Shown piece after piece: positions 3,078 to 20,871 of a stretch of 62,933 bases of DNA; positions within the stretch are counted from its first letter, which is position 1; the number at the start of each line of letters is the position of its first letter. Below the pieces are notes generated by a model. The model did no database searches, was not told the DNA's origin, and saw only the letters and a program-made list of their open reading frames with translations. The DNA is from Chloroflexota bacterium (lineage in GTDB: Bacteria; Chloroflexota; Dehalococcoidia; UBA2247; RBG-13-53-26). Position numbers and translations under genes: made by a program. The stretch covers positions 1 to 62,933 of the forward strand of contig VGOE01000003.1 in the NCBI GenBank assembly GCA_016876035.1, written 5' to 3'.

Positions 3078-3117
3078 CGCTTCTCACGACAGAAATGATT
3101 TCTATAAGGAGGTCAAG

Positions 3118-5322
3118 GTGGCTAAACGTACCAAACGTAAGGGAATAGGAGATGGCGGGAGAACCCTTAAGCAGATGCTTGAGGATAACAGAAGGCTTCT
3201 AAGGGAGACAGGCTGTTATGCTGGCATAACTGAGCCTCATGTGTTAAGAGATGACCCGGTCAAGGCTGAGCTTTTTCAGTGGCGCCTGCTATCGTCGCTC
3301 ATATCCGGCCGCCAGACTGCCAGAATGATCTCTGGGTCGCCGTATGTTCGCGAGATGGCCGAGCTCTGCATGGGCCTCTACACGCCGGAAGGCGACAATG
3401 TGCTCCAATCTACCGGAATCCAGGTGCATGTCCGCCTGATGGGGGACAACGTAACCTGGATGATAGGAAACAACTATGAGGAAGATGTAGGGATAAACGA
3501 GGGCGACTTATTTGTGGCCAATGACCCAGTGATAGCTGGTGTACATTCGGTGGACGTCTATGACATTATGCCTATCTTTTGGGAGGATGGGCTTGTTGCC
3601 TGGGTGATTACTGTGATCCACGAAATGGACTGTGGGGGAGTCAGCCCGGGCTGTATGCCTGTCACTGCTGTGGAGCGGGGTGCAGATGGCCTGAAGTTCT
3701 GCTGCGAAAAGATGGGAACCGATGACAAGATCAGGCGTGATTTTGAGATCAAGATAGAGATATCGCTTGACCTTGCTGCTCACTTCCTCTTGGATCGCAA
3801 AAGCGCTGTTGCCTCCAATATCCGTGTCCGGGAAGAAGTTAAGAACATCATACGGGAATATGGCGTGGACTACTTCAAGAAAGCTACAAGGGAGCTTATC
3901 GAGGAAGAGCGGCGTAACCAGATCGCCCGCATAAAGCAGCGCACTGTTCCGGGGCGCTACCGTGATGTGGTGCCATTGGAACTCTACATGGCCCGGGTGC
4001 CAGTATCCTGGCTGCCAGCCAAGAAGGATGTCCTGCGGTTAATCCCTATGCAGATGGATATCCTACCCGAAGGCCGCCTGGTACTTGATTTCGATGGAGC
4101 AGGTGAGTGGGGCTGGCACTCCATGAATGTAACGCCAAAAGGCCTCTGGGGCGGGCTGTCCATATGTATTGTGCAGGCATTGTCTTATGACGGCCGTGGT
4201 AACCTAGGGTCCCTCCTGCCTTGTGAGATAAAGACGCCGACCGTTGACTCCATTCTTAATCCCAGCCAGATTAAGAAGTTGGCTACAAATTATCCGTGGG
4301 CACCGAAGTTAGATATCTTTAGCTTGTGGTGTGGCACGCTGGGTACTGCCTTTTACATGCGCGGCTTCAGAGAAGAAGTGTTCAACTGCGTGTCCAGCTC
4401 CGGGTGGCAACTGGCTGGGTACGACCAGTTTGGAAACAAGCGGCCCATGCAGGCTGGCGGAATTGGCAACTTTGGAGGCGGTGCCACCGGAGTAGGCGAC
4501 GGGGTGGATACTGGGGCTTGGATGGCTACCCCTGAGACGGATTTGGGCAACTGGGAGGTGTGGGAGCTGTTTGTGCCTCAGCTATTCATGTCCAGGATAC
4601 TTGAACCATATTCGGTGGGTTACGGCAGGTACCGCTCTGGCGTAGCTATACCGAGCATGGATATGCTTCACAGGTTTAGCGAGGGGATAGGCAGTGCTGC
4701 TATCGGTTGTGGTCATGATCGTATCCTGCCTAACATCGGCTTGTTCGGTGGATACCCTGGAGGAAAGCGGAACACCTTCCTCGTCCGCTACCACAACTTC
4801 GAGGATATGATTGCCAAGAGGCTGCCATTGATCCACGAGATAGGTAATCCACGGGAGTTCAAGAACCAGAAGTACGCTGACGTGATCTACTTTGACTACA
4901 CGGTAGGCGCAGTCGAGGTTCGTGACAAAGACTTGACTGTCGCGGATAACGGATCGGCAGGTGGTCTTGGCGATCCCATTGAAAGGGATCCGGCACTTCA
5001 GAAGGCAGACCTGGACACTGGTCTCACCAACGCGGAGATCAGCAGGAATGTGTACTGCATTGAGGCTCGCTATGACGAGAAAGCGAAAGAATGGAAAATC
5101 GACGAGGGAGCCACCAAGAAACTGCGTGAAGCGAAGCGCAAGGAACGCTTGTCCAGAGGAGTGCCAGTGGAGGTGTGGTGGCAGACGTCCCGACAACGTG
5201 TGCTAAAGAAGAACATGGACCCGCTTCTTATTGAAATGTACCACAGCAGTATGAAGCTAAGTCAGAAGTTCACACAGGAGTTCAAGGACTTCTGGAGTTT
5301 GCCTGACGATTTCGCTCTATGA
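3118..5322 (+). CDS. acxB: Acetone carboxylase alpha subunit-like (hydantoinase B family), divergent
   Basis: 734 aa; N-terminal GG.TLKQ, SP.V.E..ELC..LY, VHSVD, VIHEMD, GEWGWH, PE.D.G..E.WE and GGLGDPIERDP; C-terminal F..FWSLP; GTG start with SD AAGGAGG. Confidence 0.8.
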   Translation: MAKRTKRKGIGDGGRTLKQMLEDNRRLLRETGCYAGITEPHVLRDDPVKAELFQWRLLSSLISGRQTARMISGSPYVREMAELCMGLYTPEGDNVLQSTGIQVHVRLMGDNVTWMIGNNYEEDVGINEGDLFVANDPVIAGVHSVDVYDIMPIFWEDGLVAWVITVIHEMDCGGVSPGCMPVTAVERGADGLKFCCEKMGTDDKIRRDFEIKIEISLDLAAHFLLDRKSAVASNIRVREEVKNIIREYGVDYFKKATRELIEEERRNQIARIKQRTVPGRYRDVVPLELYMARVPVSWLPAKKDVLRLIPMQMDILPEGRLVLDFDGAGEWGWHSMNVTPKGLWGGLSICIVQALSYDGRGNLGSLLPCEIKTPTVDSILNPSQIKKLATNYPWAPKLDIFSLWCGTLGTAFYMRGFREEVFNCVSSSGWQLAGYDQFGNKRPMQAGGIGNFGGGATGVGDGVDTGAWMATPETDLGNWEVWELFVPQLFMSRILEPYSVGYGRYRSGVAIPSMDMLHRFSEGIGSAAIGCGHDRILPNIGLFGGYPGGKRNTFLVRYHNFEDMIAKRLPLIHEIGNPREFKNQKYADVIYFDYTVGAVEVRDKDLTVADNGSAGGLGDPIERDPALQKADLDTGLTNAEISRNVYCIEARYDEKAKEWKIDEGATKKLREAKRKERLSRGVPVEVWWQTSRQRVLKKNMDPLLIEMYHSSMKLSQKFTQEFKDFWSLPDDFAL

Positions 5323-5331
5323 GGTGAAGAG

Positions 5332-5892
5332 ATGGAATATAGCAAACAGGATTTGAAAGACCTATACGACGGCAAGCTTCCTTGGGAGAAGGTCAAGGAG
5401 ATCATGAGTCGGCCCAAGGACGACGACCGGTTTGACAAGTATGTCGAGATACTCCAAGAGCGCGTGAAATGGCCCGAGAGAATTCTGCTGCCGATCGGAG
5501 AGCACCTCTACATCGTTGAAAAGGGTGGAGAGCGGATTGTGAAATGCGATTGCGGACACGAGTTCGGTGACTACAGACGGAACTGGAAGCTGAGCGCTCT
5601 CATCTTTGCAAGAGACACCCGTGAGAAGCTGGAAGAGATATATCCAGGTGTAAGGTGCCCTGACCCAAACTTTTGTGAAGTACGAGAGTATTGTTGTCCT
5701 GGCTGCGCTAGCCTACTCAAGGTGGAGAGCGTACCGGTGGGCTACCCGATCATTTTTGATTTTCTTCCGGACATAGACGCTTTCTATCGCGACTGGCTTG
5801 GAAGACCTCTTTCGAACGAGAAGGAGTTCAAAGATGTGAGCTACGGGGTCACCAGGGAATGGGGCCGGCAGCATGATCGGACCTGCCGCTGA
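5332..5892 (+). CDS. acxC: Acetone carboxylase gamma subunit-like
   Basis: 186 aa; CDCGHEFG...NWK and REYCCPGC Zn motifs, P.GYP.IFDF.PDID.FY..WLG. Confidence 0.85.
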   Translation: MEYSKQDLKDLYDGKLPWEKVKEIMSRPKDDDRFDKYVEILQERVKWPERILLPIGEHLYIVEKGGERIVKCDCGHEFGDYRRNWKLSALIFARDTREKLEEIYPGVRCPDPNFCEVREYCCPGCASLLKVESVPVGYPIIFDFLPDIDAFYRDWLGRPLSNEKEFKDVSYGVTREWGRQHDRTCR

Positions 5893-6211: not shown

Positions 6212-7432
6212 GTGAGCCGTATTGCGAAAACCGTAACGGTGTTGCTGCTGGTCCCGGTGCTTCTGGCGGGTCTTTTCGTAGGCTGTGCTAATGGTAAAGA
6301 AGCCGAAGGTGTGACCATCACCATAGGAGAACTGACTGATCTTACAGGGCCAGCCTCGACCGCCTTGAGGCCAATACACTATGTAATTGAGGATGTAATC
6401 AGGCACTACAATGATGAAGCAGTCATCCCTGGGGTGAAAATAAAGCTGGCTACTTATAATACCCATTATGACCCTGCCAGGACACTGCCTGGGTGGGACT
6501 GGCTGAAAGGCAAGGGAGCAAAGTTTGTGATCACAATAATGGCAGCGGATGCTTTGCTGCTGAAGTCTCGTGCTGAAGAAGAGAAGACGCCGATAAGTTG
6601 CATGGGTACAACTATAGAACTGTTGGAGCCTCCTGGATGGGTATTTTCCTTCTCCACTACGCCTGGATGGAATACCAAGACTATCCTGAAATGGATTGCA
6701 GAGCATGAATGGGATGGCCAACAGCCTGCCAAAATTGGCTATTGTGGTTGGGCGCAGCCCCACGACCAAGAAGTAGCGAAAGCGATGAGGGAGTATTGCC
6801 AGGAGTACCAGGGGCAGTTTGAGCTCGTCGGTACCTATCTGCCACCTGTGGGAACAATGTCCTTCGTAAGTGAGGCACAGAAGTTGAAGGGTTGTGATTA
6901 CGTGTTCTCGGTGGCAGGAATGGCCGTTGGAAATGTCATGAGGGACTACTTCGCTGTGGGTGGCAAGGGAAAGCTTGTGGATCCGGTGGGTGTCCTGTCC
7001 GCTGACCAGGGTTATCTCAGTGACCTGCTCGGCTGGAGTGCCATCGACGGATGGCTGACCATTCTTACGGCTCTAACCTTTACGACTCGTACAAGCATAA
7101 CCACCTTCCTGTATGACCTGCTTCGCAGATATCGCTCCCCGGCGCAGGTGGAGAGAATCATGCACGATGGCGGCTACGCTGCGCCGGGTCACCAGGTGAT
7201 TCCGATGCTCGAAGTTCTGAAGAAGGCAGCGCAAGAGGTGGGGATCGAGAACCTTGACGGCCAAGCCTACTACAATGCAGCGCTGACATATAAGACAACG
7301 TGGGAGGACTACCCTGAATGGGGTTTCAGCAACACGAAGCGGTATTTGATGAATCAACTGGCGATACATAAATACAGCGCAGAGAAGAAGGACCTGGTCT
7401 GGGTTAGCGGATGGGAGCCCATTGTAAAATGA
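6212..7432 (+). CDS. Lipoprotein ABC-type solute-binding protein (LivJ/PBP1 fold), orphan
   Basis: Signal peptide with lipobox FVGC; TIGELTDLTGPAS and YNTHYDPAR motifs; paralog of 29352 and 33992. Confidence 0.8.
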   Translation: MSRIAKTVTVLLLVPVLLAGLFVGCANGKEAEGVTITIGELTDLTGPASTALRPIHYVIEDVIRHYNDEAVIPGVKIKLATYNTHYDPARTLPGWDWLKGKGAKFVITIMAADALLLKSRAEEEKTPISCMGTTIELLEPPGWVFSFSTTPGWNTKTILKWIAEHEWDGQQPAKIGYCGWAQPHDQEVAKAMREYCQEYQGQFELVGTYLPPVGTMSFVSEAQKLKGCDYVFSVAGMAVGNVMRDYFAVGGKGKLVDPVGVLSADQGYLSDLLGWSAIDGWLTILTALTFTTRTSITTFLYDLLRRYRSPAQVERIMHDGGYAAPGHQVIPMLEVLKKAAQEVGIENLDGQAYYNAALTYKTTWEDYPEWGFSNTKRYLMNQLAIHKYSAEKKDLVWVSGWEPIVK

Positions 7433-8300: not shown

Positions 8301-10208
8301 ATGGGAAAGGCTGTCGGAATTGATCTAGGAACTACTTTCAGTGAAGTGGCAGTGGTGCAGGGTGGGGAACCGGTGGTTATTCCTTCTGCTGAAGGCGGTA
8401 ACACCATTCCTTCGGTAGTGGCCATAAGCAAGACTGGGGAACGACTGGTAGGGCAAGTAGCCAGGCGTCAGGCGATCGTGAATCCAGAGAATACTGTTTA
8501 CAGCATCAAGAGATTCATGGGTCGTAGGTGGGGAGAGCCAGCGGGGCGAGAGTTGCCGGTGGAGGAAGATGCCCGCCGTAAGACCTACAAGGTGACGAAG
8601 GCACCTAACAACGATGTGCGGGTGTTGATGGGAGGCAAAGAGTACAGTCCGCCGGAAATATCGGCCATGATTCTGCAGAAGTTGAAGACAGATGCGGAGG
8701 CTTACCTGGGTGAGCCGGTCACGGACGCAGTGATCACGGTGCCGGCTTACTTCAATGACTCCCAACGGCAGGCAACCAAAGACGCTGGCAAAATCGCTGG
8801 TCTCAACGTGCTGAGAATAATCAATGAGCCAACGGCGGCCGCTCTGGCCTACGGATTGGATAAGAAGGGAGAGGAGAGGATCGCTGTCTATGACCTGGGT
8901 GGTGGTACCTTTGATATCTCTATTCTGGAGATTGGCGAGGGCACCTTCCAGGTCAAGTCTACCAGCGGTGATACTCATCTGGGTGGTGATGACTTTGACC
9001 AGAGAGTCATGGACTGGCTATGCGACGAGTACAAGCGAGACCAGGGTGTAGACCTGAGGCAGGATAAGATGGCTCTACAGCGGCTTAAGGAAGCTGCCGA
9101 GAAGGCCAAAATTGAGCTCTCCACCGTCCAGCAGACGGAGATAAACCTTCCCTTTATTACGGCTGATGCCAGCGGCCCGAAGCATCTGAACATTACCCTG
9201 ACTCGGGCGAAGCTGGAGCAGTTGGTAATGGACCTGGTGGATAAGACCCTGGGCCCCTGTCGCCAGGCCCTGACTGATGCTGGGAAGACCTCAGCCCAGA
9301 TTGACGAGGTGATCCTCGTTGGCGGTCAGACGAGAATGCCCCTGGTGCAGAAAAAGGTGAAGGAATTTTTCGGTAAAGAACCGAACAAGGGCGTTAACCC
9401 GGATGAGGTAGTAGCCATCGGGGCTGCTATCCAAGCCGGGGTTCTCAAGGGAGAGGTCAGGGATGTACTGCTTCTGGATGTGACCCCTCTTACCCTGGGT
9501 ATTGAAACCCTGGGTGGGGTGATGACACCGCTTATCACCCGCAATACCACCGTTCCCACCGCCAAGAGTGAGGTATTCACCACGGCAGCAGATAGCCAAC
9601 CCAGCGTGGAGATACATGTACTCCAGGGTGAGCGACCCATGGCGAAGGAGAACAAAACCATCGGACGTTTCATGCTGGATGGCATTCTGCCGGCACCGAG
9701 AGGCATGCCGCAGATCGAGGTCACCTTCGATATAGATGCCAACGGCATTCTGAACGTGTCGGCCAGAGATAAAGGCACCGGACGCGAACAAAAGATCACT
9801 ATCACGGCTTCCTCCGGTCTCTCCAAGGAAGAGGTGGAAAAGATGGTGCGGGAGGCGGAGTTACACGCTGATGAGGACCGCAGGAAGAGGGAAGAGGCGG
9901 AAACCAGGAACATGGCCGATAACATGGCCTACAACGCCGAGAAGACCATGCGGGAACAGGGCGACAAGATACCGGCCGACCTGCGCTCGGAAGTCGAGGG
10001 CAAGATCGCTGGAGTCCGCACGGCACTCCAGGGTACGGATGCCCAGCAGGTACGGCGCGCCGTGGATGAACTGCAAGCGTCGCTTCAGAAAGTGGGCGCC
10101 GCTGTCTACGGCCAGGCCGGTGCGGGTGCAGGCAGACCTCCTGGCGATGCACCTCCGGGGGAACCGCCGCCTGATGGCACGGTGGAAGGGGAGTTCAGAG
10201 AGGTATAA
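8301..10208 (+). CDS. dnaK: Chaperone DnaK (Hsp70)
   Basis: [42 protein letters not shown] and C-terminal EGEFREV. Confidence 0.98.
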
Positions 10209-10478: not shown

Positions 10479-11819
10479 TCACACCACGGCCAGTTCATAA
10501 TCAGCCTCAATTCCCTCAGCCTTAAGTATAGCGTCAAGTTCATCCTGGAAGAAGAACTTCGCTTCTCCAAAGGCCGGCTTCAGATCCGTATACCAGGTAG
10601 CATTCTCATCATACTCGGCAAAGAAAGGACGGGCGACCCAGTCAGGGTTTCTGCCCTGAATCATTCTGAAGGTCAGAGCCTTTCTGCCCTGTATCTCAGC
10701 TACACCTAGAATCTGGACTTTCCCCGGAACGCAAGACATACTCGGTCCACGCACGGTCCTGCATATTCCACTAACTGATTGATAAGCCTGTCTGAAAATT
10801 CGCCAGGCTTCCACCAGCGGAACAGAGAAATAATGCTGTGCTCCAGTGTCTCTGGCGATGAACATATAGTATGGTATGCAATCCAGGGCAACTTGTCTTC
10901 GCAACATGTCCGCCCAGACCTCAGGTGAGTTATTGATATGTCGTAACACAGGAGACTGGGTTCTTATCACAGCACCTGTCTCAAGAATTCTACCAATTGC
11001 ATCTTTGACGGCACTTCCCTCAAGCTCAACGGGATGATTGAAGTGGGCCATAAATGCCAGATGTTTTCCCGCTTGCTTGACTTCCCTAAAAAGGTTTAAC
11101 AACTCCACGGCATCATCGTCTGTCAAGAATCTGTAGGGCCAATAAGCAAGGGCCTTGGTGCCTATCCTTATATTACGAAGATTCGATAGATTTGATTCAA
11201 GCAAGGGTCTAATGTAAGTAGAGAGTATCCTCGCTTTCATCACCAGCGGGTCTCCGCCTGTGAATAACACATCAGTAACCTCAGGATGCTCTGATATGTA
11301 TTGCACGAGTGACTGCGACTCTCTAGATGCGAACTTCAATTCATCCATCCCTACAAATTGTGGCCAGCGAAAACAAAATGTGCAGTACGCGTGACAGGTT
11401 TGTCCCTGACTCGGAAAGAACAAAACGGTCTCCCGATATTTATGCTGGAGGCCACGCAGCTTTTCCCCGCCTAACACGGGTATGTTGTGCTCCCTTTGTC
11501 CGGCAGGATGCGGATTCAATTGATGTCTTATTTCGTTCGCCAATGTATTTATCTCTGATTTGTCCGCGCCTGATTCAAATAAAGACTCCATTCTTCTGTA
11601 ATGATGGGGTAAGAGCATATCCTTTTGTGGAAATGTCATAATGAATATCGGGTCATCCGGTACCTTCGACCAATCAATTAGATGGTCGGTCACATAGTTG
11701 TTTGTTTTGAAAGGCAATACCGAGCCGACTATTTCAATGGCACGGATTTGTTCATCCGAAAGGTGCTTGATCTGAGGCATCGATCTCAAATTGCTCATCG
11801 TGTAGGATTTGTACTTCAT
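10479..11819 (-). CDS. KamA-family radical SAM protein (lysine 2,3-aminomutase-like)
   Basis: HKYRETVLFFP, CHAYCTFCFR (CX3CX2C), VLFTGGDP, IRIGTK, IPYYMF, GPSMS..PGK; visibly more AT-rich than neighbours. Confidence 0.85.
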   Translation of the reverse strand: MKYKSYTMSNLRSMPQIKHLSDEQIRAIEIVGSVLPFKTNNYVTDHLIDWSKVPDDPIFIMTFPQKDMLLPHHYRRMESLFESGADKSEINTLANEIRHQLNPHPAGQREHNIPVLGGEKLRGLQHKYRETVLFFPSQGQTCHAYCTFCFRWPQFVGMDELKFASRESQSLVQYISEHPEVTDVLFTGGDPLVMKARILSTYIRPLLESNLSNLRNIRIGTKALAYWPYRFLTDDDAVELLNLFREVKQAGKHLAFMAHFNHPVELEGSAVKDAIGRILETGAVIRTQSPVLRHINNSPEVWADMLRRQVALDCIPYYMFIARDTGAQHYFSVPLVEAWRIFRQAYQSVSGICRTVRGPSMSCVPGKVQILGVAEIQGRKALTFRMIQGRNPDWVARPFFAEYDENATWYTDLKPAFGEAKFFFQDELDAILKAEGIEADYELAVV

Positions 11820-12079
11820 TTAAGCCTCCTACTCATAGATTTTCTTTTGGGCAGCACACCATCAGTTGAAGGCGACGAGCTATCAACCGGTGATGTTATT
11901 GAACTGCAACTGGCAGCTGAGCCAATCACCAGTAATTGTGTTTGCCACGCTATCGTAAATGACCCCAGACGAGGAAACCCTGGCAAAGCCTTTGTCCGTG
12001 GCAAGCTTCAGGAAAGCTCAGCCGGAGCCGACAGATACCATCAATATCAACAAGGTACGGGACCCAGGGAGTTGAGGGG

Positions 12080-13426
12080 CTAGCCGGGCATCATCTCGGG
12101 TAACTCTTCCAGGGCGGACTCCACTTGCTCCTCCAGAAAAGGCTGGTCTGCCACTGCGCCAGCAAGGAAGTCCCTGAAGGTAACAAGATCAAGATTACTG
12201 TTGGTGCTTAAGACAAACAGGATGTTCTTGCGTTCGCCTTTTTCTCTGCAAGCTATGGCTTCATCCATAACCGCCTTGACTGTGTACGAGGACTCAGGAG
12301 AGCATACAAACCCCTCGGCCTGAGCAAAGGCCACCGCAGCCTCAAGAGCCTGACCTTGCGTGTAGGCTTTGGCTTCGATCTGTTTTTCTCTGTACAAGGC
12401 GCTGATCAGCGGCGATATGCCGTGGTAACGCATGCCGCCAGCGCGGATGCCCGGGGGCATGAAGCTGTGGCCGAGGGTGTACATCTTTAGCAAGACGGAT
12501 AGACCCTCGGCGTCTGCGTAGTCATAGGCGTAACGCCCTTTGGAAAGGCTTGGAGCGGCCGATGCTTCCACTGCGATCATCCGTCTCCCCTCCCTCCGCT
12601 CGCGGTAGAAAGGCAAAATAAGACCTCCGAAAGCGCTACCCCCACCCACAGCGCCGCAAATAATGTCAGCATCAGCACCTGCCCGGCGTAGCTGGAGTCG
12701 GGCTTCAAGTCCGATAACAGTTTGATGCAGCAAAACATGATTCATTACTGTGCCCCAGGCAAATTTCACATCATCGCGGACGCTAGCCTCTTCAAAGGCC
12801 TCGCTCAAAGCAATACCCAAGCTGCCAGGGCTTTGGGGGTATTGCGAGCGTATTTTCTTTCCTGTGCGCGTGTCCTCGCTGGGGCTCGGAATCACCTCGG
12901 CTCCCAGTATCTCCATGATGGCTCGCCCGTAGAGCTTCTCCTCAAAGCTGGCCCTAACCATGTACACTTTGCAGCGGATGTTGAAGTAATTGCAGGCGAT
13001 GGCCAGCGAGGCACCCCATTCTCCATTCGCCGTGGCTGTAACAATGCCTTTTGCACCCTCGCGGCTCGCGTAGTATGCTTGGGCCACGGCAGTATTGAAC
13101 TCGTAGCTGCCTGACGGACTACCACCCTCGTACTTGTAGAAGATTCGAGCAGGCGTTCCCAGTCTCTTTTCGAACCTCTCAGCTCGGAAGAGAGGCGTCG
13201 GCCTCCATTCGGAATACACTTGGCGAACCTCATGGGGGATAAGCATGAATCGTTCCCCCGTGTCCAATTCCTGCTGAATGATGGCCAATGGGGCTAGTGA
13301 TCTAAGGTCATGCGGGCTCAGGGGGTAGCCGCTGGGACTCATTGGTGGGGGCAGCTTGAACCCCAAGTCGGGGATGACGTTATACCACTTATCTGATAGC
13401 TCCTTGGCGTCGAGCGAGATTCTCAT
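12080..13426 (-). CDS. TrpB2-like (tryptophan synthase beta-like) protein lacking the Schiff-base lysine
   Basis: Full TrpB2 scaffold (WYN, WRPTPL.RA, YKYEG, HVLLHQTVIG, GGGS, KMYTLGH, RYHG), but GSYEFNTA instead of GSHKPNTA. Confidence 0.85.
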   Translation of the reverse strand: MRISLDAKELSDKWYNVIPDLGFKLPPPMSPSGYPLSPHDLRSLAPLAIIQQELDTGERFMLIPHEVRQVYSEWRPTPLFRAERFEKRLGTPARIFYKYEGGSPSGSYEFNTAVAQAYYASREGAKGIVTATANGEWGASLAIACNYFNIRCKVYMVRASFEEKLYGRAIMEILGAEVIPSPSEDTRTGKKIRSQYPQSPGSLGIALSEAFEEASVRDDVKFAWGTVMNHVLLHQTVIGLEARLQLRRAGADADIICGAVGGGSAFGGLILPFYRERREGRRMIAVEASAAPSLSKGRYAYDYADAEGLSVLLKMYTLGHSFMPPGIRAGGMRYHGISPLISALYREKQIEAKAYTQGQALEAAVAFAQAEGFVCSPESSYTVKAVMDEAIACREKGERKNILFVLSTNSNLDLVTFRDFLAGAVADQPFLEEQVESALEELPEMMPG

Positions 13427-13453
13427 GCCAATGCCTCCTCTTCAAAGGGATGC

Positions 13454-13518
13454 TTGACAAATCGTGTATGTAAGTGTATGATCACTTACATGCTAGCACC
13501 TAATTGTTTGCCTGTCAA
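13454..13518. promoter_or_regulatory. Overlapping divergent sigma70 promoters with a 24-bp palindromic operator
   Basis: Plus strand: TTGACA 13454-59, N17, TATGAT 13477-82. Minus strand: TTGACA 13518-13, N17, TAGCAT 13495-90. Palindrome ATGTAAGTG-TATGAT-CACTTACAT at 13468-13491. Confidence 0.7.
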
Positions 13519-13579
13519 TATCCAGTTCAAGGGGACGCAAAGATCTGGGCCGCTTGAGACTCAGACATTCGTCGGAGGT

Positions 13580-13694
13580 GCTAGTTCCGCGTAACAACCG
13601 AGATTCTTCTCCCGCCTCAGGCGGGCGGATCAGAATGACACCTGCGGACCTGTCACCCTGAACGTAGCGAAGGGTCTCATGTTACGAAGCACTA
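13580..13694 (+). repeat. REP/BIME-like palindromic dispersed repeat, copy 1
   Basis: GAGATTCTTCTCCCGCCTCAGGCGGGCGGATCAGAATGACA...TGTCACCCTGAACGTAGCGAAGGGTCTC; inverted near-identical copy at 30578-30704. Confidence 0.8.
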
Positions 13695-13727
13695 GTAGGG
13701 GATAAGCAGAATTGGTCAGGGGCCTGT

Positions 13728-14345
13728 ATGAGTCAGATTAGAGAGACCAGCGAAATCCGGCAGCAGCAAATTGTGGAGGCTGCACGCAGCATTGTTACTG
13801 CTCGGGGTATAGAGGCCCTGACCATTCGCGAGATAGCCAAGGAAGTAGGCATTTCAGAGGCCGATATCTACCGGCACTTTGCCAGCAAGAAGGTAATCCT
13901 CCTATTTCTCATTGAGGATGTTGAGAAAACGCTGATGGAGATGGTGGAGCGAGCTGCTTCTGAGGAGCGAGAGCCGGTACAGAGCTTGGAAAATGTGCTC
14001 AAGGCTCACCTGTCCTACGTGGAGCAGCGGCGCGGTGTCTCCTTGTTAGTGGTTGCTGAGACCCTTCGTCTGGCCGACAAAGACCTGCGAAAGAGGATGT
14101 TTGAAGTTGTGAACCGCTACATAGGGCGCATCGCGGAGATCCTGGCCCAGGGCGTGAGATCGGGACACGTCAGAAAGGATATAGACCTGGATACTGCCGC
14201 CCTGACTTTTTTCGCCCTGGTTCACGCTACGGTTACTCTATGGGCCCTCAGCGACGCTAGTTTTTCGCTTACAGAGAGGCATGAGTCTCTATGGGAGTCG
14301 TATCTTGCAGGCATTGCCGAAAAGGCTTTTGAATCAGGGCCATAA
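13728..14345 (+). CDS. TetR/AcrR-family transcriptional regulator
   Basis: RQQQIVEAA...GIEALTIREIAKEVGISEADIYRHFASK HTH. Confidence 0.92.
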   Translation: MSQIRETSEIRQQQIVEAARSIVTARGIEALTIREIAKEVGISEADIYRHFASKKVILLFLIEDVEKTLMEMVERAASEEREPVQSLENVLKAHLSYVEQRRGVSLLVVAETLRLADKDLRKRMFEVVNRYIGRIAEILAQGVRSGHVRKDIDLDTAALTFFALVHATVTLWALSDASFSLTERHESLWESYLAGIAEKAFESGP

Positions 14346-14523
14346 GGGTGGTAGAATGCACCTATGGCAAAGCCCTGGTATTAGCGAAGCCTCCGGGTAA
14401 ATCACAGGTATTGTCCAGTCATAACGCAAGACATCGATTTTTTGCGGATAACAACATTATGCTACTCTGGGAATTTGTGTGTTTGGTGACGAAGCCTAAC
14501 TGTCGGCGACAAAGAGGTGCCTG

Positions 14524-15858
14524 ATGCTAACACAAGATGTTGAAATGCGAGACGTACTTATTGCACTAGCTATTGCTCTGCCCACTTTCCTTGCTGCCGG
14601 ACTCTTTTATTACAGCCTGCGGCATTTAGCGCGCCGGCTGGCAGCCAAGACGACGACAGTCCTGGACAACATGCTGGTAGAGGCTCTGCAATGGCCTGTT
14701 CTCGTAGGCATAGTCTTGGCGGGGATCTATTTTTCTGTCCTTTCCCTCCCCTGGAAGGAATCTGCAGACTTCGAAATCAGGAGAGGTTTCTATGTAGCAT
14801 TCTATGTCCTGGCAGCTTACGGAGGCGCAACGCTGTTAGACGCCCTGTTTCGGTGGTTCAAGCTGGAGGTGGCCCCTAAAACCGCCACCGCCCTGGATGA
14901 CTGGATTATTGGTTTCCTCAGATTACTTACGCCAGTCATCGCTGCCTTCTTAGCGCTGCTGGGCTGCTTGGGACTATTTGACATTGAAACAGAGGGGATT
15001 AAGGACTGGCTGGTGAAACATGGAACACGTATTGGCCTTGTCATCTTCATTTCAGTGGCTGTGCTTTTCTTCCTCGGCATCGCTCTGCCTCGTGGCATAA
15101 AAGCCTTTGTGCTCAGGGAGGCTACGGGACAACCTGAAGAGGAGATACAAAAGAGGACGCAGACTCTGACCCGTGTATTGGTAGCTACAGGGCAGGTCTT
15201 CATCATCCTGATAGCCATCTTCATCATCTTGTCTGAGGTGGGCATAAACATCGCTCCTGCCCTGGCGGGGGTTGGGGTAATCGGTATCGCCGTCGGCTTT
15301 GGTGCTCAGAGCCTGATCAAGGATATCATTGCTGGCCTTTTCATAGTACTGGAGAACCAATATCGCGTGGGCGATGTGGTCGGTATAGCTGACAAGCGAG
15401 GCCTGGTAGAGCAGATCAACCTGCGACGCACGGTACTCAGGGACATGGATGGCATCGTTCATTCGGTGCCCAATGGAGAGATAAGGGTAGCCAGCAATTT
15501 CACCAAGGAGTGGTCTCGGGTCAACCTGAACATCAGTGTTGCCTACGGAACAGACCTGGACCGCGCCATTGCGGTCATTAACCGGGTCTGCGGGGAGATG
15601 GCGGCAGACCCGCAGTGGGCGCCTCTGATTCTCAAGACCCCGGAGGTACTGCGAGTTGACAACCTTGGAGCCTCAGGCATTGAGCTCAAGGTCGTGGGTG
15701 ACACCAAGCCGATCCAGCAGTGGGCGGTGATGGGGGAAATCCGCAAAAGGGTGAAGAAAGCCTTCGATGAGGAAGGCATCGAGATACCGTGGCCTCATAC
15801 CAAGGTCTACTTCGGCAATACCCCTCTCCCCCCTACATGGCCGGAGGGAGAAGGATAG
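14524..15858 (+). CDS. Mechanosensitive channel MscS family with extended N-terminal TM region
   Basis: GVIGIAVGFGAQSLIKDIIAGLFI, YRVGDVV, VPNGEI..ASNFT, GIEIPWPH. Confidence 0.92.
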   Translation: MLTQDVEMRDVLIALAIALPTFLAAGLFYYSLRHLARRLAAKTTTVLDNMLVEALQWPVLVGIVLAGIYFSVLSLPWKESADFEIRRGFYVAFYVLAAYGGATLLDALFRWFKLEVAPKTATALDDWIIGFLRLLTPVIAAFLALLGCLGLFDIETEGIKDWLVKHGTRIGLVIFISVAVLFFLGIALPRGIKAFVLREATGQPEEEIQKRTQTLTRVLVATGQVFIILIAIFIILSEVGINIAPALAGVGVIGIAVGFGAQSLIKDIIAGLFIVLENQYRVGDVVGIADKRGLVEQINLRRTVLRDMDGIVHSVPNGEIRVASNFTKEWSRVNLNISVAYGTDLDRAIAVINRVCGEMAADPQWAPLILKTPEVLRVDNLGASGIELKVVGDTKPIQQWAVMGEIRKRVKKAFDEEGIEIPWPHTKVYFGNTPLPPTWPEGEG

Positions 15859-15868
15859 GGGGTGGGCA

Positions 15869-17344
15869 ATGTGGACGAAGGAAAGTCTGCGAGAGTTGGT
15901 AAGGACTAAGCTCGGCGATTACCTTTTCATCGTCGTATCCAACAGGGAGCCCTATATCCATGTTTACGCCGGCTCTGAGATCAAGTGCGAGGTGCCGGCC
16001 AGTGGGCTCACGGTAGCCCTCGATCCGGTGATGCAGGCTTGCGGAGGAACCTGGATAGCTCATGGTAGCGGCGATGCTGACCGCGAGGTGGTTGACGAGC
16101 AAAATAAGGTCGCTGTCCCTCCGGAGGAGCCCCGATATTCCTTAAGGCGGGTGTGGCTCTCCAAGGAGCAAGAGGACGGCTACTACTTTGGCTTCTCCAA
16201 TGAAGCTCTCTGGCCGCTGTGCCACATATCCTATACTCGCCCAATGTTCAACGAATCTGACTGGGAGACTTATAAAGAGGTGAACCAGCTTTTCGCCGAT
16301 AACATCCTTGATGAAGTAGCGGACAGGAGAGCCTTTGTCTTTGTGCAGGACTATCATTTAACACTCTTACCTAGATTCATCAAGGAGAAGAACCCCAACG
16401 TCATAATTGCCCAGTTCTGGCATATTCCCTGGCCTAACCCGGAAGCCTTCCGCATCTGCCCCTGGCAAAAGGAAATCCTCGAGGGGCTGCTGGGAAATGA
16501 CCTGCTGGGGTTCCACATCCGCTACCACTGCAACAATTTCTTGGATACTGTAGATCGGGCGCTGGAAACGCGGGTAGACCGGGAAAGGTACGAGGTCAAT
16601 AGAGGCGGCAAGAAGACTACAGTTTGTCCTTTCCCTATTAGCGTTGACTTTGAGGACATCTCGAGGGAGGCCCAAGGAGAAGACATAACAACAGAGATTA
16701 GAAGGTTAAAGAGCAGGCTGGGTCTGCGAGATGAACTGGTGGGCCTTGGCCTGGATCGCATCGACTACACCAAAGGCATCCCGGACAGGCTGCGGGCCTT
16801 TGATCGTTTCTTGGAGAAGTATCCTGGTTACAAAGAACGAGTGGTCTTCATTCAGGCGGGCGTCCCTAGCCGCAGTCACATAGGCGCTTATAAGAGGCTG
16901 AACGAAGAGATAGATAACCTAATAGAGGAAGTGAACTGGAAGCATGCCTTCGGGCACTGGAGGCCGGTGATCTACCTTCGTGAGCACCTGTCGCCCACCA
17001 CGCTGATGGCACTACGCCGCATTGCCAGTTTCTGCGTCGTCAGTTCGCTGCACGACGGGATGAATCTGGTAGCCAAAGAGTTTGCGGCCAGCCGCTTCGA
17101 TGAGGACGGTGTGCTCATCCTCAGCCCCTTCACGGGGGCTGCCAGGGAACTGACCGATGCCCTGCTGGTGAATCCCTATGCCACTGACCATTTCGCTGAA
17201 GCTATCAATAAGGCACTGGAGATGCCCCAGTCAGAGAGACAGAGACGGATGCGGAAAATGCGGCAGGTGGTGCAAGAGAACAATATCTACAAATGGGCCG
17301 CGGCCATAATATCGGAGCTGGTGAAATTTGAATTTGGAGAATGA
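15869..17344 (+). CDS. otsA: Trehalose-6-phosphate synthase
   Basis: VSNREP, GL..AL, GFSNE.LWPLCH, QDYHL, FWHIPWP, DRIDYTKGI, DGMNLVAKE; ATG 15869 chosen over the track start 15767. Confidence 0.93.
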   Translation: MWTKESLRELVRTKLGDYLFIVVSNREPYIHVYAGSEIKCEVPASGLTVALDPVMQACGGTWIAHGSGDADREVVDEQNKVAVPPEEPRYSLRRVWLSKEQEDGYYFGFSNEALWPLCHISYTRPMFNESDWETYKEVNQLFADNILDEVADRRAFVFVQDYHLTLLPRFIKEKNPNVIIAQFWHIPWPNPEAFRICPWQKEILEGLLGNDLLGFHIRYHCNNFLDTVDRALETRVDRERYEVNRGGKKTTVCPFPISVDFEDISREAQGEDITTEIRRLKSRLGLRDELVGLGLDRIDYTKGIPDRLRAFDRFLEKYPGYKERVVFIQAGVPSRSHIGAYKRLNEEIDNLIEEVNWKHAFGHWRPVIYLREHLSPTTLMALRRIASFCVVSSLHDGMNLVAKEFAASRFDEDGVLILSPFTGAARELTDALLVNPYATDHFAEAINKALEMPQSERQRRMRKMRQVVQENNIYKWAAAIISELVKFEFGE

Positions 17345-17347
17345 CCA

Positions 17348-18148
17348 TTGCAGCATCTCTTCTCTGTTTGGCCTGAGGTTGCCCAGCGCCTCAAAGCCGC
17401 ACGGGGTGTGCTACTTTTCTCTGACTACGATGGCACCCTTACGCCTATCGTGGATAGGCCGGAGCTGGCAGACTTGCCAGCAGAAACGAGGCGACTTCTG
17501 CGAGCTTTGGCTCACCGGCACCGCTTCACAGTTGGCATCATCAGCGGTCGGGCGCTATCGGATCTCAAGCACAGGGTCGGCATCGAGAGCATTGTCTATG
17601 CTGGCAACCACGGGCTGGAAATCGAGGGGCCGGGCATTAGCTTTATCAACCCGCTGGCGGAGGAGATGAAGCCTGTGTTGCGCCTGATACACCAGGCATT
17701 GAGCAAGGCGCTGGCTACGGTGAGAGGTTCTCTAGTTGAGGACAAGGGTCTTAGCTTGAGCGTGCACTACCGCCGGGTGGAGGAAAAGGAAGTGGAGAAA
17801 GCCAAAACCATCTTCGAACGCATCCTGCACGTACCTCGCCTATCGGGGATGATCAAGGTTACTTCGGGGAAAAAGGTTCACGAGGTAAGGCCAGCGGTAG
17901 ACTGGGATAAGGGCAAAGCCATAAAATTGCTTATGAGGAGATATGGCAAAGGGGGGAGGAGAAGCGGGCTGTTGCCTATCTATCTGGGTGATGACTTAAC
18001 CGACGAGGATGGCTTTAGAGCTATTGAACGCTACGGAGATGGCCTCACCGTATTCGTGGGTGGAGAGAATGACAGCACCGTGGCGCGCTATTTCTTAAGG
18101 TCACCACATGACGTGGAGAGATTCTTGAGCATGCTGCTTGATCTGTAA
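17348..18148 (+). CDS. otsB: Trehalose-6-phosphate phosphatase (HAD)
   Basis: FSDYDGTLTPI, IISGR, YAGNHG, GKKVHEVRP, WDKG.A, YLGDDLTDEDGF; TTG start. Confidence 0.92.
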   Translation: MQHLFSVWPEVAQRLKAARGVLLFSDYDGTLTPIVDRPELADLPAETRRLLRALAHRHRFTVGIISGRALSDLKHRVGIESIVYAGNHGLEIEGPGISFINPLAEEMKPVLRLIHQALSKALATVRGSLVEDKGLSLSVHYRRVEEKEVEKAKTIFERILHVPRLSGMIKVTSGKKVHEVRPAVDWDKGKAIKLLMRRYGKGGRRSGLLPIYLGDDLTDEDGFRAIERYGDGLTVFVGGENDSTVARYFLRSPHDVERFLSMLLDL

Positions 18149-18159
18149 AAAGGCAGAAA

Positions 18160-19536
18160 ATGACGGAATTTACCTGGCACGATGCAGTTATCCCTGTGGC
18201 TGTCTTCCTGGCCACCCTTATTGCCACAGTCTGGTTGAGACAGGTTGGCTACAGCGCTCTCAAGCGGTGGATGGAGAAAATCCAGTGGCAGGGCGACGAG
18301 CTCCTGCTCCAGGCCCTCAGAGGGCCTTCGATTCTTTGGTGTCTGCTGATAAGCGCTGGGTTGGCAGTGGCAGTATCGGATTTATCCACGAGGTGGAAGG
18401 ATGACGCAGCAGATGGCTTGTGGACCCTTTTGATCCTCTCCCTTGGCCTCACTGCTCTCAATCTGGCTGGCAAGTTCATCCCGTTTTACGGAGAGAGGTG
18501 GAAGCTTCCCCGGAACGTTATCTCTCTCAGCAACAACGTGGCCCGCGTTGTTATTCTAATTGTGGCAGGATTGATGCTGCTGGATGTCTGGGGAGCACCC
18601 ACAAGCCCTGTGTTGCTGGTCATAGCCATAGCAGCCATAGCCGCGTTGCTAGCCTCCAGGGGAGCACTCCCTAACCTTTTCGCCTGGTTTCAGCTCAGCG
18701 CCACCGGACATATTAAGGTCGGCGACTACATTAAGCTGGAGACCGGTGAGGAAGGCTACGTTATGGAAATGGACTGGAGAAACACCAAAATCAAAGCCCT
18801 GGATGAAAGCACCGTTCTTATCCCAAACAGCAAACTGATGCATTCTACCGTAATAAACTATGGGCGGCCGCTGAAAAAGGCGAAGGAGCCGTTCCGTTTC
18901 TACTCCAGGGTTCACCTCAAGGAGCTGACCGGGCTAACGGCGAAAAACCTCCAGGAGCTAGCAACCATTCTGAAAACGGTACCTGACCCGATCATCTACT
19001 ATCATACCCATCAGTTTCTGGAGGAGCATCACTACCTCACCCCTGAGCCTGCTAACGACTTTGCCCTCTGGGTAAGGGACGCCCTCGGCAATGAGGTTTT
19101 GGGAGAGAGACTCGCGGCTATTGATACCTTTGAATTCGCCGCCCTGGGAGCTCTGCGAGAGAGACTGGTCGCCATCATTGAGGAACACCTGACCCTGGAA
19201 GCCCAGTATGGCGATGGCCACCGAAACGCTCCGGAGGGGAGAGAGTTTCACTTCATTAAGTCAGTGAGCGCAATTCTGTCCACCCCTTATGTTGTCCGCG
19301 ACCTGAGGGAGTTTGTGGAAGCGTTGCGAAAAATCAGCCTTGGCGCTCTTTACTTCCATGTTTTTGAGTCCAGACTGCGGTTAAGCAGAGGCTCAAACGA
19401 TTTCTCCATCTGGATAGAAGAGAGCCTGGGTGACAAGGAGCTTGCGGGGGAGATCGCCCGGCTCGACCCCTATAACTATACGCTGGAGGGACTGAGATCG
19501 TCACTGATACGGATTATCGAAAAACGCATCAAGTAA
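18160..19536 (+). CDS. MscS TM/beta domain fused to DUF5752 tandem-repeat domain
   Basis: N-terminal TM helices plus IKVGDYIKL..G.V....WR.T.I....STVLIPNS, then two repeats of F.F...L.EL...L..V....(I/L)Y(Y/F)H....NDF..W....LG...L. Confidence 0.8.
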   Translation: MTEFTWHDAVIPVAVFLATLIATVWLRQVGYSALKRWMEKIQWQGDELLLQALRGPSILWCLLISAGLAVAVSDLSTRWKDDAADGLWTLLILSLGLTALNLAGKFIPFYGERWKLPRNVISLSNNVARVVILIVAGLMLLDVWGAPTSPVLLVIAIAAIAALLASRGALPNLFAWFQLSATGHIKVGDYIKLETGEEGYVMEMDWRNTKIKALDESTVLIPNSKLMHSTVINYGRPLKKAKEPFRFYSRVHLKELTGLTAKNLQELATILKTVPDPIIYYHTHQFLEEHHYLTPEPANDFALWVRDALGNEVLGERLAAIDTFEFAALGALRERLVAIIEEHLTLEAQYGDGHRNAPEGREFHFIKSVSAILSTPYVVRDLREFVEALRKISLGALYFHVFESRLRLSRGSNDFSIWIEESLGDKELAGEIARLDPYNYTLEGLRSSLIRIIEKRIK

Positions 19537-20750
19537 GGATTTCCGACTACGAGGCCATTGTTGGCCGCAGCACTATTGAGGAGTTACGGCTGCTGGCCAG
19601 CAAGCTCTCAGGAAAGGTAATCCAGAACATAAACTCCACCTTCAGTGGTGGTGGCGTGGCTGAGATTTTGAGCCGTATGGTGCCCCTTCTGGGGCAATTA
19701 GGAGTGAATGCTCACTGGAATGTTATTAAGGGCAGCGAGGAGTTCTTCCAGGTAACCAAGAAATTTCACAATGCCCTCCATGGCAGGGCAGAACAGATTT
19801 CCCCCCAGGACTTCTCTGTCTTTCTGGAAATAAGCGAGAAGAACATTCAGGAGTTGAGCCTGCAAGGAGACGTCATCTTCGTCCATGATCCCCAGCCGGC
19901 GGCACTCGTCAAAAGGAAGAAGGAGATAGGGAAGCAATGGATATGGAGATGTCATATCGACGTTTCCAGGCCTAACGAGGAAGTGTGGAACTTCCTCCTT
20001 CCCTTTGTAGTCCAGTATGATGCGGCAGTCTTCTCCTCTCCATCCTTCTCCCGTGAGCTTCCCATACGTCAGTTTCTCGTCTCACCGTCCATAGACCCCT
20101 TGAGCGACAAGAACAAGGAACTTCCCCAGGACGCCATTGATGCTGTCCTGTCCAAGTATGGCATCCCAAAGGATAAGCCAATAGTCACCCAGGTCTCCCG
20201 CTTCGACTATCTCAAGGATCCCGTGGGCGTCATTCAGGCTTTTAAGATGGTTAAGAAAAGCGTAGGCTCAACACTCGTGTTGGCTGGTGGCACTGCCACC
20301 GATGATCCTGGGTCAGACAAGGTGCTGGCTGAGGTAAAGGACAGAGCGGAGGGTGATCCCGATATCCATGTGCTGTTAATTCCGCCTGGTAGTGACATAG
20401 AGATCAACGCACTGCAAAGGGGTAGCACTGTGGTGGTGCAAAAATCATTGAAAGAAGGCTTCGGCCTCACTGTGAGCGAAGCCCTGTGGAAATCAAAGCC
20501 TGTGGTGGCCTCTGCCGTAGGGGGGATACCGCTTCAGGTGAAGAATAGATTCACCGGTCTCCTTTCCCACGGCATTGAAGGGACAGCCTATGCCATCAGG
20601 CAACTTCTTACCAATCAGGAGTATGCCAGGTGGCTAGGGCAGAACGGCAGGGAACATGTCAGGCAGAATTTTCTTATCACCCGTCACTTGAGGGACTACC
20701 TGCTCCTGTTCCACTCCCTCGGCCATCCTGAGGACGTTATCTATCTCTGA
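19533..20750 (+). CDS. treT: Trehalose glycosyltransferring synthase TreT (GT4); conserved N-terminus lacks a canonical start
   Basis: NINSTFSGGGVAEIL, FVHDPQP, WRCHID, QVSRFDYLKDP, EGFGLTVSEA. The homologous frame extends about 40 codons upstream of the track start 19656, to GTA at 19533. Confidence 0.85.
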   Translation, partial: VRISDYEAIVGRSTIEELRLLASKLSGKVIQNINSTFSGGGVAEILSRMVPLLGQLGVNAHWNVIKGSEEFFQVTKKFHNALHGRAEQISPQDFSVFLEISEKNIQELSLQGDVIFVHDPQPAALVKRKKEIGKQWIWRCHIDVSRPNEEVWNFLLPFVVQYDAAVFSSPSFSRELPIRQFLVSPSIDPLSDKNKELPQDAIDAVLSKYGIPKDKPIVTQVSRFDYLKDPVGVIQAFKMVKKSVGSTLVLAGGTATDDPGSDKVLAEVKDRAEGDPDIHVLLIPPGSDIEINALQRGSTVVVQKSLKEGFGLTVSEALWKSKPVVASAVGGIPLQVKNRFTGLLSHGIEGTAYAIRQLLTNQEYARWLGQNGREHVRQNFLITRHLRDYLLLFHSLGHPEDVIYL

Positions 20751-20871
20751 GGAACCTGTAGGTTGAGCACCTCGCTTCTGGAGAGATTTGACTTCGTGGG
20801 CGGCTGTGCTGGCTCCGGAGCGGTAAGGTCAGTTTTCAGACGTTAGAGGTCCGCCTAGCGAGTGATGAAGT

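Follow-up and report, generated by a model that had tools for sequence, protein, structure and literature searches.

The TrpB2-like gene and its product

The 62,933-nucleotide (nt) stretch analyzed here (contig VGOE01000003.1 from a Chloroflexota bacterium of the class Dehalococcoidia; the whole stretch is hereafter called the window) carries on its minus strand, at positions 12080 to 13426, a gene for a 448-amino-acid (aa) relative of TrpB2 in which the lysine that forms the Schiff base with pyridoxal phosphate (PLP) is replaced by glutamate. Upstream of it lie a divergent gene for a TetR-family regulator and a cluster of osmotic- and ion-stress genes, and downstream of it lies a gene for a KamA-family radical SAM protein. 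An earlier reading made from the DNA letters (the sequence-only reading) had claimed an intact 448-aa frame, and the open reading frame (ORF) is indeed uninterrupted, with zero internal stops.

Profile searches placed the product among the TrpB2 proteins. It scored 558.6 bits against the NCBIfam equivalog NF009057 ("TrpB-like pyridoxal phosphate-dependent enzyme"), well above the cutoff of 366, fell slightly short of the cutoff of TIGR01415 (503.9 versus 518.85 bits), and matched PF00291 with 132.9 bits. The best matches among solved structures in HMMER searches were three Sulfolobus TrpB2 entries, led by 6HUL_B (1.7e-119) and followed by 4QYS and 6HTE. An AlphaFold2 model computed with 97 homologs as input reached a pLDDT of 90.1 and a pTM of 0.90, and the top Foldseek match of this model was again 6hul_B (E = 2.4e-47; TM scores, 0.87/0.94; root mean square deviation, 2.1 Å), placing it in the fold-type II TrpB2 fold. 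Taken together, the ORF, the profile matches, the structure model, and the ratios of nonsynonymous to synonymous substitution (dN/dS) given below show that the gene encodes a TrpB2-type protein that is folded, looks expressed, and has been kept by purifying selection, and we assign it to a Lys-to-Glu family, of which it represents clade A ("TrpB2-E"). By sequence and fold, the window protein is a member of the TrpB2 family that lacks two of its defining catalytic features, the Schiff-base lysine and the catalytic glutamate. The internal-aldimine mechanism of canonical TrpB should therefore be closed to it.

Changed and retained active-site residues

The residue at the site of the Schiff-base lysine (K87 in Salmonella TrpB and K82 in P. 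furiosus) is Glu109, encoded by a GAG codon (13100 to 13102, minus strand). The minus-strand codons TAC (13105 to 13103; Y108), GAG (13102 to 13100; E109), and TTC (13099 to 13097; F110) give GSYEFNTA where the canonical protein has GSHKPNTA, exactly as the sequence-only reading had it, and the HMMER alignment to solved TrpB2 sets E109 against the Lys of GSHK(I/P)N, A131 and E136 against the Glu and the Gln of TETGAGQWG, and A265 against the Asn of GGGSN. The codons likewise bear out the two further motif replacements that it had proposed, namely, TATANGEWG (13039 to 13013) and GGGSA (12646 to 12632). The first of these is the substrate/carboxylate loop (13013 to 13039, minus strand), where the catalytic Glu (E109 of the Salmonella protein) has become Ala131 and the O3'-contacting Gln has become Glu136.

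To place these changes, we used the 120 closest database homologs (60 to 88% identity) as a sample of clade A and a second Glu-bearing group of 55 members, recovered in a second search, as clade B. Ala131 is present in all 120 clade A homologs, and the same site is Gly in clade B; 118 of the 120 have Glu or Asp at position 136. Two additional substitutions stand out against canonical TrpB2. Gly167 (12926 to 12928, minus strand) occupies a column that is Arg in 73/73 canonical sequences and Gly in 117/119 clade A and 54/54 clade B sequences, and Tyr381 (12284 to 12286, minus strand) occupies one that is His in 71/73 canonical sequences and Tyr throughout both clade A (119/119) and clade B (54/54). 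The derived changes common to the two Glu clades and absent from the 73 canonical TrpB2 sequences are K109E, R167G, H381Y, A376S, L332M, S226T, and Y222F.

Much of the pocket is retained. The phosphate-binding glycine loop GGGSA (12632 to 12646, minus strand; canonical GGGSN) keeps G262 and G263 in 120/120 clade A homologs and S264 in 112/120, with Gly, Ala, or Ser at the Asn site. The MRYHG motif (12419 to 12433, minus strand) contains the TrpB2-specific Arg333 (Asp300/305 in TrpB1), which is present in 115/120 clade A homologs, and all 55 clade B members have MR(Y/F)HG. The preference of TrpB2 for O-phosphoserine was reportedly traced by Busch et al. in 2014 to one residue, which we take to be the equivalent of Arg333. 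The Trp that follows the carboxylate loop (W137), another TrpB2 mark, occurs in 115/120 clade A homologs, and together with Arg333 it places the protein in the TrpB2 and not the TrpB1 subgroup. In a 2007 survey of TrpB variants, W110 and an Arg in place of TrpB1 D300 marked TrpB2, and H81, K82, and S371 (P. furiosus numbering) were strictly conserved in all TrpB1 and TrpB2 proteins then known (PMC1854888). The S371 equivalent, at the pyridine-N1 contact position, is Ser407 in the window protein, within a segment (FVLSTNSNLD; 12188 to 12217, minus strand) that corresponds to the canonical FNLSGHGxxD; the same position is Asp in 58, Ser in 32, and Asn in 22 of the best 120 homologs. At position 108 (H81 in P. 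furiosus), the window protein has Tyr, and the 120 homologs are divided between His (90) and Tyr (30). Residues 108 and 407 covary (His-Asp, 57; Tyr-Ser, 18; Tyr-Asp, 1), which may be partly phylogenetic. Positions conserved to 85% or more in canonical TrpB2 are for the most part unchanged in clade A, as is the length of the carboxylate loop. We also considered whether the Schiff-base lysine had migrated elsewhere in the pocket; this was ruled out, as the sole Lys conserved in both Glu clades is K98, which is equally conserved in canonical TrpB2.

In sum, the protein is like canonical and solved TrpB2 (36 to 47% identity) in fold, in length, in passing the NF009057 cutoff, and in W137, the GGGS phosphate loop, and the Arg of (L/M)RYHG, but unlike it in the Lys-to-Glu, catalytic Glu-to-Ala, Arg167-to-Gly, His381-to-Tyr, Gln136-to-Glu, and Asn265-to-Gly/Ala changes, in its score below the TIGR01415 cutoff, and in a clade A gene context made up of ion channels and stress genes instead of trp genes (see below). 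A coordinated remodeling of an otherwise preserved pocket, with two positive charges lost and one negative charge gained, looks like the signature of a change of function and not of relaxed constraint.

Conservation, extent, and origin of the family

An error of sequencing or assembly at the lysine codon (AAG in the reads), or a recently inactivated trpB2, would be one explanation of these changes, and the bare loss of catalytic residues is the only observation on its side. At least 10 contigs encode exactly this protein; they come from several independent samples (those listed include two JGI metagenomes and five SRA runs), and all seven retrieved copies of such contigs carry GAG at residue 109. 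In the residue-109 column of the best 120 homologs, we found Glu in 112, Asp in 5, Gln in 2, and Lys in 1, and the Glu codons in the clade A loci are both GAA (10) and GAG (26). In all, Glu is shared by more than 165 homologs in two clades, down to 45% identity, and is not a peculiarity of one genome. The dN/dS values, calculated by the Nei-Gojobori method for pairs with unsaturated dS only, are 0.135 and 0.145 for the window against two relatives of 86 to 88% identity (loci L052 and L054) and 0.077 to 0.105 inside another group of clade A loci (the L002 group), i.e., around 0.1 and far from 1. With an intact frame and a confident structure model in addition, we regard the artifact or decay explanation as refuted and its residual probability as negligible, and the view taken in the sequence-only reading, that the gene is not decaying, holds; we take the gene to be functional. 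The substitution of the lysine is far beyond chance, being fixed, to judge from the alignments, in two large clades.

The named members among the best 120 homologs are all proteins from Dehalococcoidia, Dehalococcoidales, or Chloroflexota metagenome-assembled genomes (MAGs). An exhaustive HMMER scan was run over 50%-identity representatives, of which the 150 best TrpB2-like hits were taken and 119 could be aligned across the lysine motif. Lys was kept in 109 of these 119, His or Gln occurred in a few sporadic sequences, and only two representatives among the 150 best bore Glu, one (P0078) standing for the window's clade A and the other (P0121) for clade B. Clade B shares about 46% identity with the window protein, has Glu in 55/55 members and the motifs GSYESNTA, TGGAGG(V/I/L)W(V/I), and G(A/G)G(S/A)H, and includes marine (Tara) sequences as well as complete Dehalococcoidia chromosomes of 3.2 to 3.5 Mb. 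Sequences intermediate between the clades, at loci L026 and L049, also have Glu. In a neighbor-joining tree, clades A and B each received 100% bootstrap support, and clade A, the intermediates, and clade B formed one group in 78% of the replicates, nested among Lys-containing TrpB2. Since the Glu clades group together within Lys-containing TrpB2, the tree favors a single, old Lys-to-Glu event; the Glu family is an old one, specific to Dehalococcoidia/Chloroflexota. A few representatives depart from this pattern at the Schiff-base position: P0107, from a clade A cluster of seven member sequences and a 1.7-kb contig, has Lys back (GGYKFNTA) with Ala still at the catalytic-Glu site (TATGGGEWG), P0092 and P0118 carry Gln, and the P0058 group carries Asp.

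Association with ion channel and transporter genes

To survey the gene neighborhoods, we retrieved 61 loci and dereplicated them at 90% identity, which left 27 clade A loci; 19 clade B or canonical TrpB2 loci served as controls. At least one ion channel or transporter gene (corA, CNNM, MscS, or TrkA_C) occurs within 5 kb in 17/27 clade A loci and in 0/19 controls (Fisher P = 5.6e-6). The most frequent of these is corA, found in 12 of the 27 loci and directly adjacent in 9 of them (0/19 controls; Fisher P = 5e-4), followed by MscS (7/27), CNNM/CorC (4/27), and a TrkA_C protein (4/27), each again with 0/19 in the controls. The corA neighbor passes the TIGR00383 equivalog cutoff. It is found in same-strand, convergent, and divergent orientations, with same-strand gaps of 50 to 80 nt at loci L006 and L007, and the pairing has therefore survived rearrangements. 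Thus, clade A is genomically coupled to cation and osmotic-stress genes.

Because the commonest neighbors are channels and not enzymes, and because both catalytic residues are gone, we tentatively rank first the reading that the protein is a pseudoenzyme that binds a ligand noncovalently and has a regulatory or sensing role linked to Mg2+, K+, and osmotic homeostasis; we hold this as the leading candidate, short of calling it probable. Under it, tryptophan synthesis would be lost, as an internal aldimine could not form and the indole-activating Glu is gone. That the phosphate loop, the carboxylate loop, and Arg333 are all preserved suggests that the old cofactor/substrate pocket still holds, noncovalently, some small phosphorylated molecule, and the fixed carboxylate at residue 109 together with the loss of Arg167 argues that this ligand presents a positive group at that residue. 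Candidates for such a group are the 4'-amine of pyridoxamine phosphate (PMP), an alpha-amine (that of an amino acid or a PLP-amino-acid aldimine), and a metal ion. The ligand itself would most likely be either O-phosphoserine or a B6 vitamer present as the amine or the external aldimine, with the invariant Glu109 pairing with its ammonium group. The output would be tied to Mg2+/K+/osmotic homeostasis and not to the trp pathway, and in the window the protein would be expressed from a TetR-controlled divergent promoter shared with the cluster of MscS, trehalose, and ATPase genes.

The same neighbors could instead point to a cofactor-free protein that binds a cation (Mg2+, Co2+, Ni2+, or K+) and buffers, delivers, or senses the ion moved by CorA and CNNM, either in the acidified former PLP pocket (E109, N/D134, E/D136, and D407) or in the inherited monovalent-cation site of TrpB. 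Consistent with this are the adjacency to corA and CNNM, including the closely spaced same-strand pairs at L006 and L007, and a pocket that is about three charge units more negative (K109E and R167G). The monovalent-cation site of TrpB is built from carbonyls of the GG(L/M)RYHG and GGGS loops, both of which are kept in the window protein, and serine racemase, also a fold-type II protein, binds Mg2+. We nevertheless consider this improbable. The glycine-rich phosphate loop is invariant, which speaks for a ligand that carries a phosphate; clade B does not share E136 and D407; and a single metal site is geometrically doubtful because residues 109 and 407 presumably sit at opposite ends of the cofactor ring, as in TrpB structures.

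Several points weigh against the regulatory pseudoenzyme itself. No ion gene is nearby in 10 of the 27 clade A loci, the adjacency could partly be synteny inherited inside a single bacterial order, the TrpB2-like and ion genes were not found to be linked by any riboswitch or shared regulator, and the sensory role is one that we infer from the neighbors alone. In addition, a strict carboxylate at the old lysine site within a pocket conserved as a whole is just what a real enzyme would show. Finally, some of the surroundings are metabolic contexts and not regulatory ones: in two clade A lineages (81% identical), the TrpB2-like gene is immediately preceded, on its own strand, by genes for a class-V aminotransferase and the phosphoglycerate dehydrogenase SerA (TIGR01327, 644 bits), and in clade B the next genes, in the same orientation, are always those for the E1 alpha and beta subunits of a 2-oxoacid dehydrogenase, even in marine and terrestrial members that are only about 62% identical.

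Metabolic contexts and a possible lysine-independent chemistry

These metabolic contexts bear on the reading that we rank second, in which the protein is a genuine enzyme with lysine-independent B6 chemistry that binds PLP or PMP noncovalently and uses Glu109 as an acid/base; it strikes us as unlikely on balance, though as a serious contender. Possible substrates would be O-phosphoserine (converted to serine and phosphate, or undergoing beta-elimination) or a 2-oxo acid such as 3-phosphohydroxypyruvate. The extreme conservation of the active-site loops, an acidic residue that is fixed and not drifting, the retained phosphate loop and TrpB2-specific Arg333, and the presence, in about half of clade A, of Asp at the pyridine-N1 position, as in aminotransferases, all suit an enzyme, as do the same-strand aminotransferase and phosphoglycerate dehydrogenase genes in two lineages and the constant E1 alpha/beta neighbors of clade B. 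The aminotransferase-dehydrogenase arrangement makes a connection with phosphoserine metabolism conceivable, and the phosphoserine phosphatase step is often missing without explanation from prokaryotic genomes (10.1101/2024.10.14.618325), a common gap that an O-phosphoserine-converting enzyme could fill. However, our literature search found no fold-type II enzyme that works without the lysine, no metabolic partner is conserved across clade A, where channels are the commonest neighbors, the serA link is confined to 2 to 3 of the 27 lineages, and no single chemistry is obviously shared by clades A and B because E136 and residue 407 differ between them.

At the aminotransferase loci, L004/L009 (5250 to 9350) and L057 (3476 to 7618), the class-V aminotransferase, a 524-aa phosphoglycerate dehydrogenase, and the Glu protein follow one another with gaps of about 80 to 120 nt and are then met by a convergent corA. 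The clade B loci (L030 to L040 and L068 to L071) belong to a syntenic block that also contains a molybdopterin oxidoreductase, a multiheme cytochrome, a GFO/IDH/MocA oxidoreductase, and 5-oxoprolinase-like genes (LamB/YcsF, CT_C_D, and CT_A_B) and is conserved from marine Tara MAGs to complete genomes of 3.3 to 3.6 Mb. Alpha-glucan phosphorylase and glycolytic genes are found near the TrpB2-like gene in several loci.

The sequence-only reading had offered a pseudoenzyme and a lysine-independent chemistry as its two options, and the intact frame, the more than 165 homologs, the low dN/dS, and a coexisting canonical trpB2 (see below) support it, with either branch fitting the evidence. Stated jointly and in its strongest form, the proposal is that Glu is a catalytically or functionally essential swap for the universal Schiff-base lysine, making the protein either the first natural lysine-independent fold-type II enzyme, for example of a PMP-type or O-phosphoserine-converting kind, or a metabolite-gated sensor derived from an inactive tryptophan synthase and coupled to CorA/CNNM Mg transport in Dehalococcoidia; in that form we consider it possible but rather doubtful.

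Relation to the tryptophan pathway and to known systems

A canonical, Lys-containing trpB2 coexists with the Glu paralog in one related genome, about 3 kb downstream of it (12495 to 13859 at L002 and 8686 to 10050 at L003). Its product has the motifs GSHKPNTA, TETGAGQWG, and GGGSNF and scores 715 bits against NF009057 and 639 bits against TIGR01415; corA, two tRNA genes, Smr, MobB, and a small AsnC-type gene lie between the two paralogs. Tryptophan synthesis in this genome is therefore not dependent on the Glu paralog. The normal trpB2 that the sequence-only reading had suggested looking for was thus found in a relative, while the window has neither a canonical trpB2 nor trpA. Besides this canonical trpB2, no trpA or other trp gene was found in the flanks of the 27 clade A loci.

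The proximity of the two paralogs is one reason to consider that the Glu protein is a noncatalytic allosteric partner of trp-pathway proteins, acting as an activator of TrpA or as a heterodimer partner of canonical TrpB2. Plant TSB-like is a TrpB paralog, derived from a TrpB1-type TSB, that does not synthesize tryptophan, has Ala in place of the catalytic Glu, and is maintained by selection for a noncatalytic role, in which it binds TrpA and activates it to release indole (PMC12727527). This proven pseudoenzyme shares the Glu-to-Ala change with the window protein and is its nearest functional precedent, and the closest solved structure to the window protein, 6HUL, is the TrpA-binding S. solfataricus TrpB2. 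The differences make such a partnership very unlikely, in our estimation: the window protein has lost the Lys too, whereas plant TSB-like apparently keeps it, as only two key residues (Glu to Ala and Asp to Glu) are reported to differ from TSB (PMC12727527); neither the window nor the 27 flanks contain trpA or, with the one canonical trpB2 set aside, any other trp gene; and trpB2 lies close to the Glu paralog in just one lineage.

Two other systems are instructive for the reading of the protein as a ligand-binding pseudoenzyme or as a lysine-independent enzyme. Engineered lysine mutants (Salmonella beta-K87T, PDB codes 2TRS, 2TSY, and 1UBS; ancestral TrpB K90A, PDB code 9VGK) resemble the natural family in lacking the Schiff-base lysine yet being folded, but they are laboratory changes in otherwise wild-type sites, whereas the natural family has a fixed Glu and several coordinated substitutions. 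The K87T mutants are said to bind external aldimines of PLP and amino acids tightly, which would offer a model for how a natural Lys-less TrpB holds a ligand. In the PMP-dependent sugar dehydratases ColD and E1, of fold type I, the Schiff-base lysine is naturally His and the cofactor is noncovalently bound PMP, so that loss of the lysine need not end catalysis; these enzymes differ from the window protein in fold type, in the His replacement, in their sugar-nucleotide substrates, and in having no sequence relationship to it. Our literature search found no described natural Lys-less TrpB/TrpB2 clade and no described Dehalococcoidia TrpB-like protein, the plant TSB-like paper and the 2007 survey being the only relevant reports.

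Among PLP enzymes, the Schiff-base lysine counts as the residue that defines the group, and here two large, old clades under strong purifying selection have Glu instead. The implication would be either that ligand binding or chemistry is possible in this fold without the lysine or that a tryptophan synthase has been turned into a regulator. Public annotations name family members "tryptophan synthase beta chain" or "TrpB-like PLP-dependent enzyme"; since the Schiff-base lysine and the catalytic Glu are both missing, they should not be filed under the former, a practice that inflates the capacity for tryptophan synthesis predicted for Dehalococcoidia and for the marine Chloroflexota related to them. 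The repeated occurrence beside corA, CNNM, and MscS suggests an unrecognized component of cation or osmotic homeostasis in this abundant, mostly uncultured group, for which one soluble 448-aa protein provides a practical handle.

Promoter region and neighboring genes in the window

The sequence-only reading had assigned the gene its own promoter, a Shine-Dalgarno sequence, and a TetR operator. The Shine-Dalgarno sequence is read directly from the DNA as GAGGAGG (13434 to 13440, minus strand), 7 nt before the ATG. A sigma-70-like promoter (13490 to 13518, minus strand) was likewise located by consensus matching, with TTGACA (13518 to 13513), a 17-nt spacer, and an extended -10 element, TGnTAGCAT (hexamer TAGCAT at 13495 to 13490), at 10 of 12 consensus positions. 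Abutting the -10 element is a perfect 9-6-9 palindrome, ATGTAAGTG-N6-CACTTACAT (13468 to 13491), a likely TetR operator, which overlaps both this promoter and an opposing promoter-like site (13454 to 13482). The regulator itself, a TetR-family protein by profile match (TetR_N and TetR_C_4), is encoded divergently (13728 to 14345, plus strand), and this divergent pairing is kept in relatives at 86 to 100% identity.

In the relatives of 86 to 88% identity (L052, L053, and L054), the palindrome is conserved with one or two changes at about 370 nt upstream of the TrpB2-like start. Its distance to tetR is 236 nt in the window, 225 nt in L052 and L053, and 123 nt in L054. Since the spacing to tetR is kept while the TrpB2-like start lies that far off in the relatives, the palindrome would be first of all a tetR-side operator. 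The operator claim thus stands for the perfect palindrome beside the divergent tetR, and control of the TrpB2-like gene by it looks firm only for the arrangement seen in the window. Riboswitch control, such as an M-box that would tie the gene to Mg2+, was tried and rejected: no Rfam match other than tRNAs was found in nine clade A loci, and none was found in the window between 8000 and 24000.

Downstream of tetR, profile matches identified a plus-strand osmotic/ion-stress cluster (14524 to 23574) that encodes MscS, OtsA (GT20), OtsB, an MscS-DUF5752 protein, TreT, and a P-type cation ATPase. With tetR, these genes form a stress island (13728 to 23574, plus strand) set between DnaK (8301 to 10208) and ClpB (23841 to 26441), and L052 has the same gene order. 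The ATPase is closest to Ca-type models of the PMR1/SERCA kind (781 bits, just under the cutoff of 798), and the fusion of MscS to DUF5752 is unusual. As delimited mechanically, the OtsA ORF (525 aa) starts at 15767 and shares 92 nt with the end of the MscS gene (stop codon at 15858). In the database, the OtsA called at the identical locus has 491 aa, implying a start near 15869, 11 nt after MscS, and the two genes are therefore probably cotranscribed.

Downstream of the TrpB2-like gene is the KamA-family radical SAM protein (10479 to 11819, minus strand; 446 aa), which has a CHAYCTFC cluster motif and an extra N-terminal region of about 120 aa. It fell far short of the cutoff of every characterized aminomutase model, with 88 to 118 bits against those for lysine, arginine, and glutamate 2,3-aminomutase and EpmB (cutoffs, 199 to 650), and had no Pfam match above the threshold. 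Its position might have hinted at a PLP-related partnership, but we ruled it out as a functional partner, as the gene accompanies only the identical TrpB2-like protein and is absent beside the 86% relative at L054 and at all other loci. A 133-aa ORF (11682 to 12083, plus strand) fills the 260 nt that separate the KamA-like from the TrpB2-like gene and extends into each of them; none of the retrieved loci has a relative of this ORF, which is probably spurious. Farther away, a plus-strand acetone or acetophenone carboxylase-like operon (927 to 5892) comprises a 716-aa ORF, a hydantoinase B/oxoprolinase (3118 to 5322), and a homolog of the acetone carboxylase gamma subunit (5332 to 5892) and is adjoined by a gene for a periplasmic binding protein (6212 to 7432).

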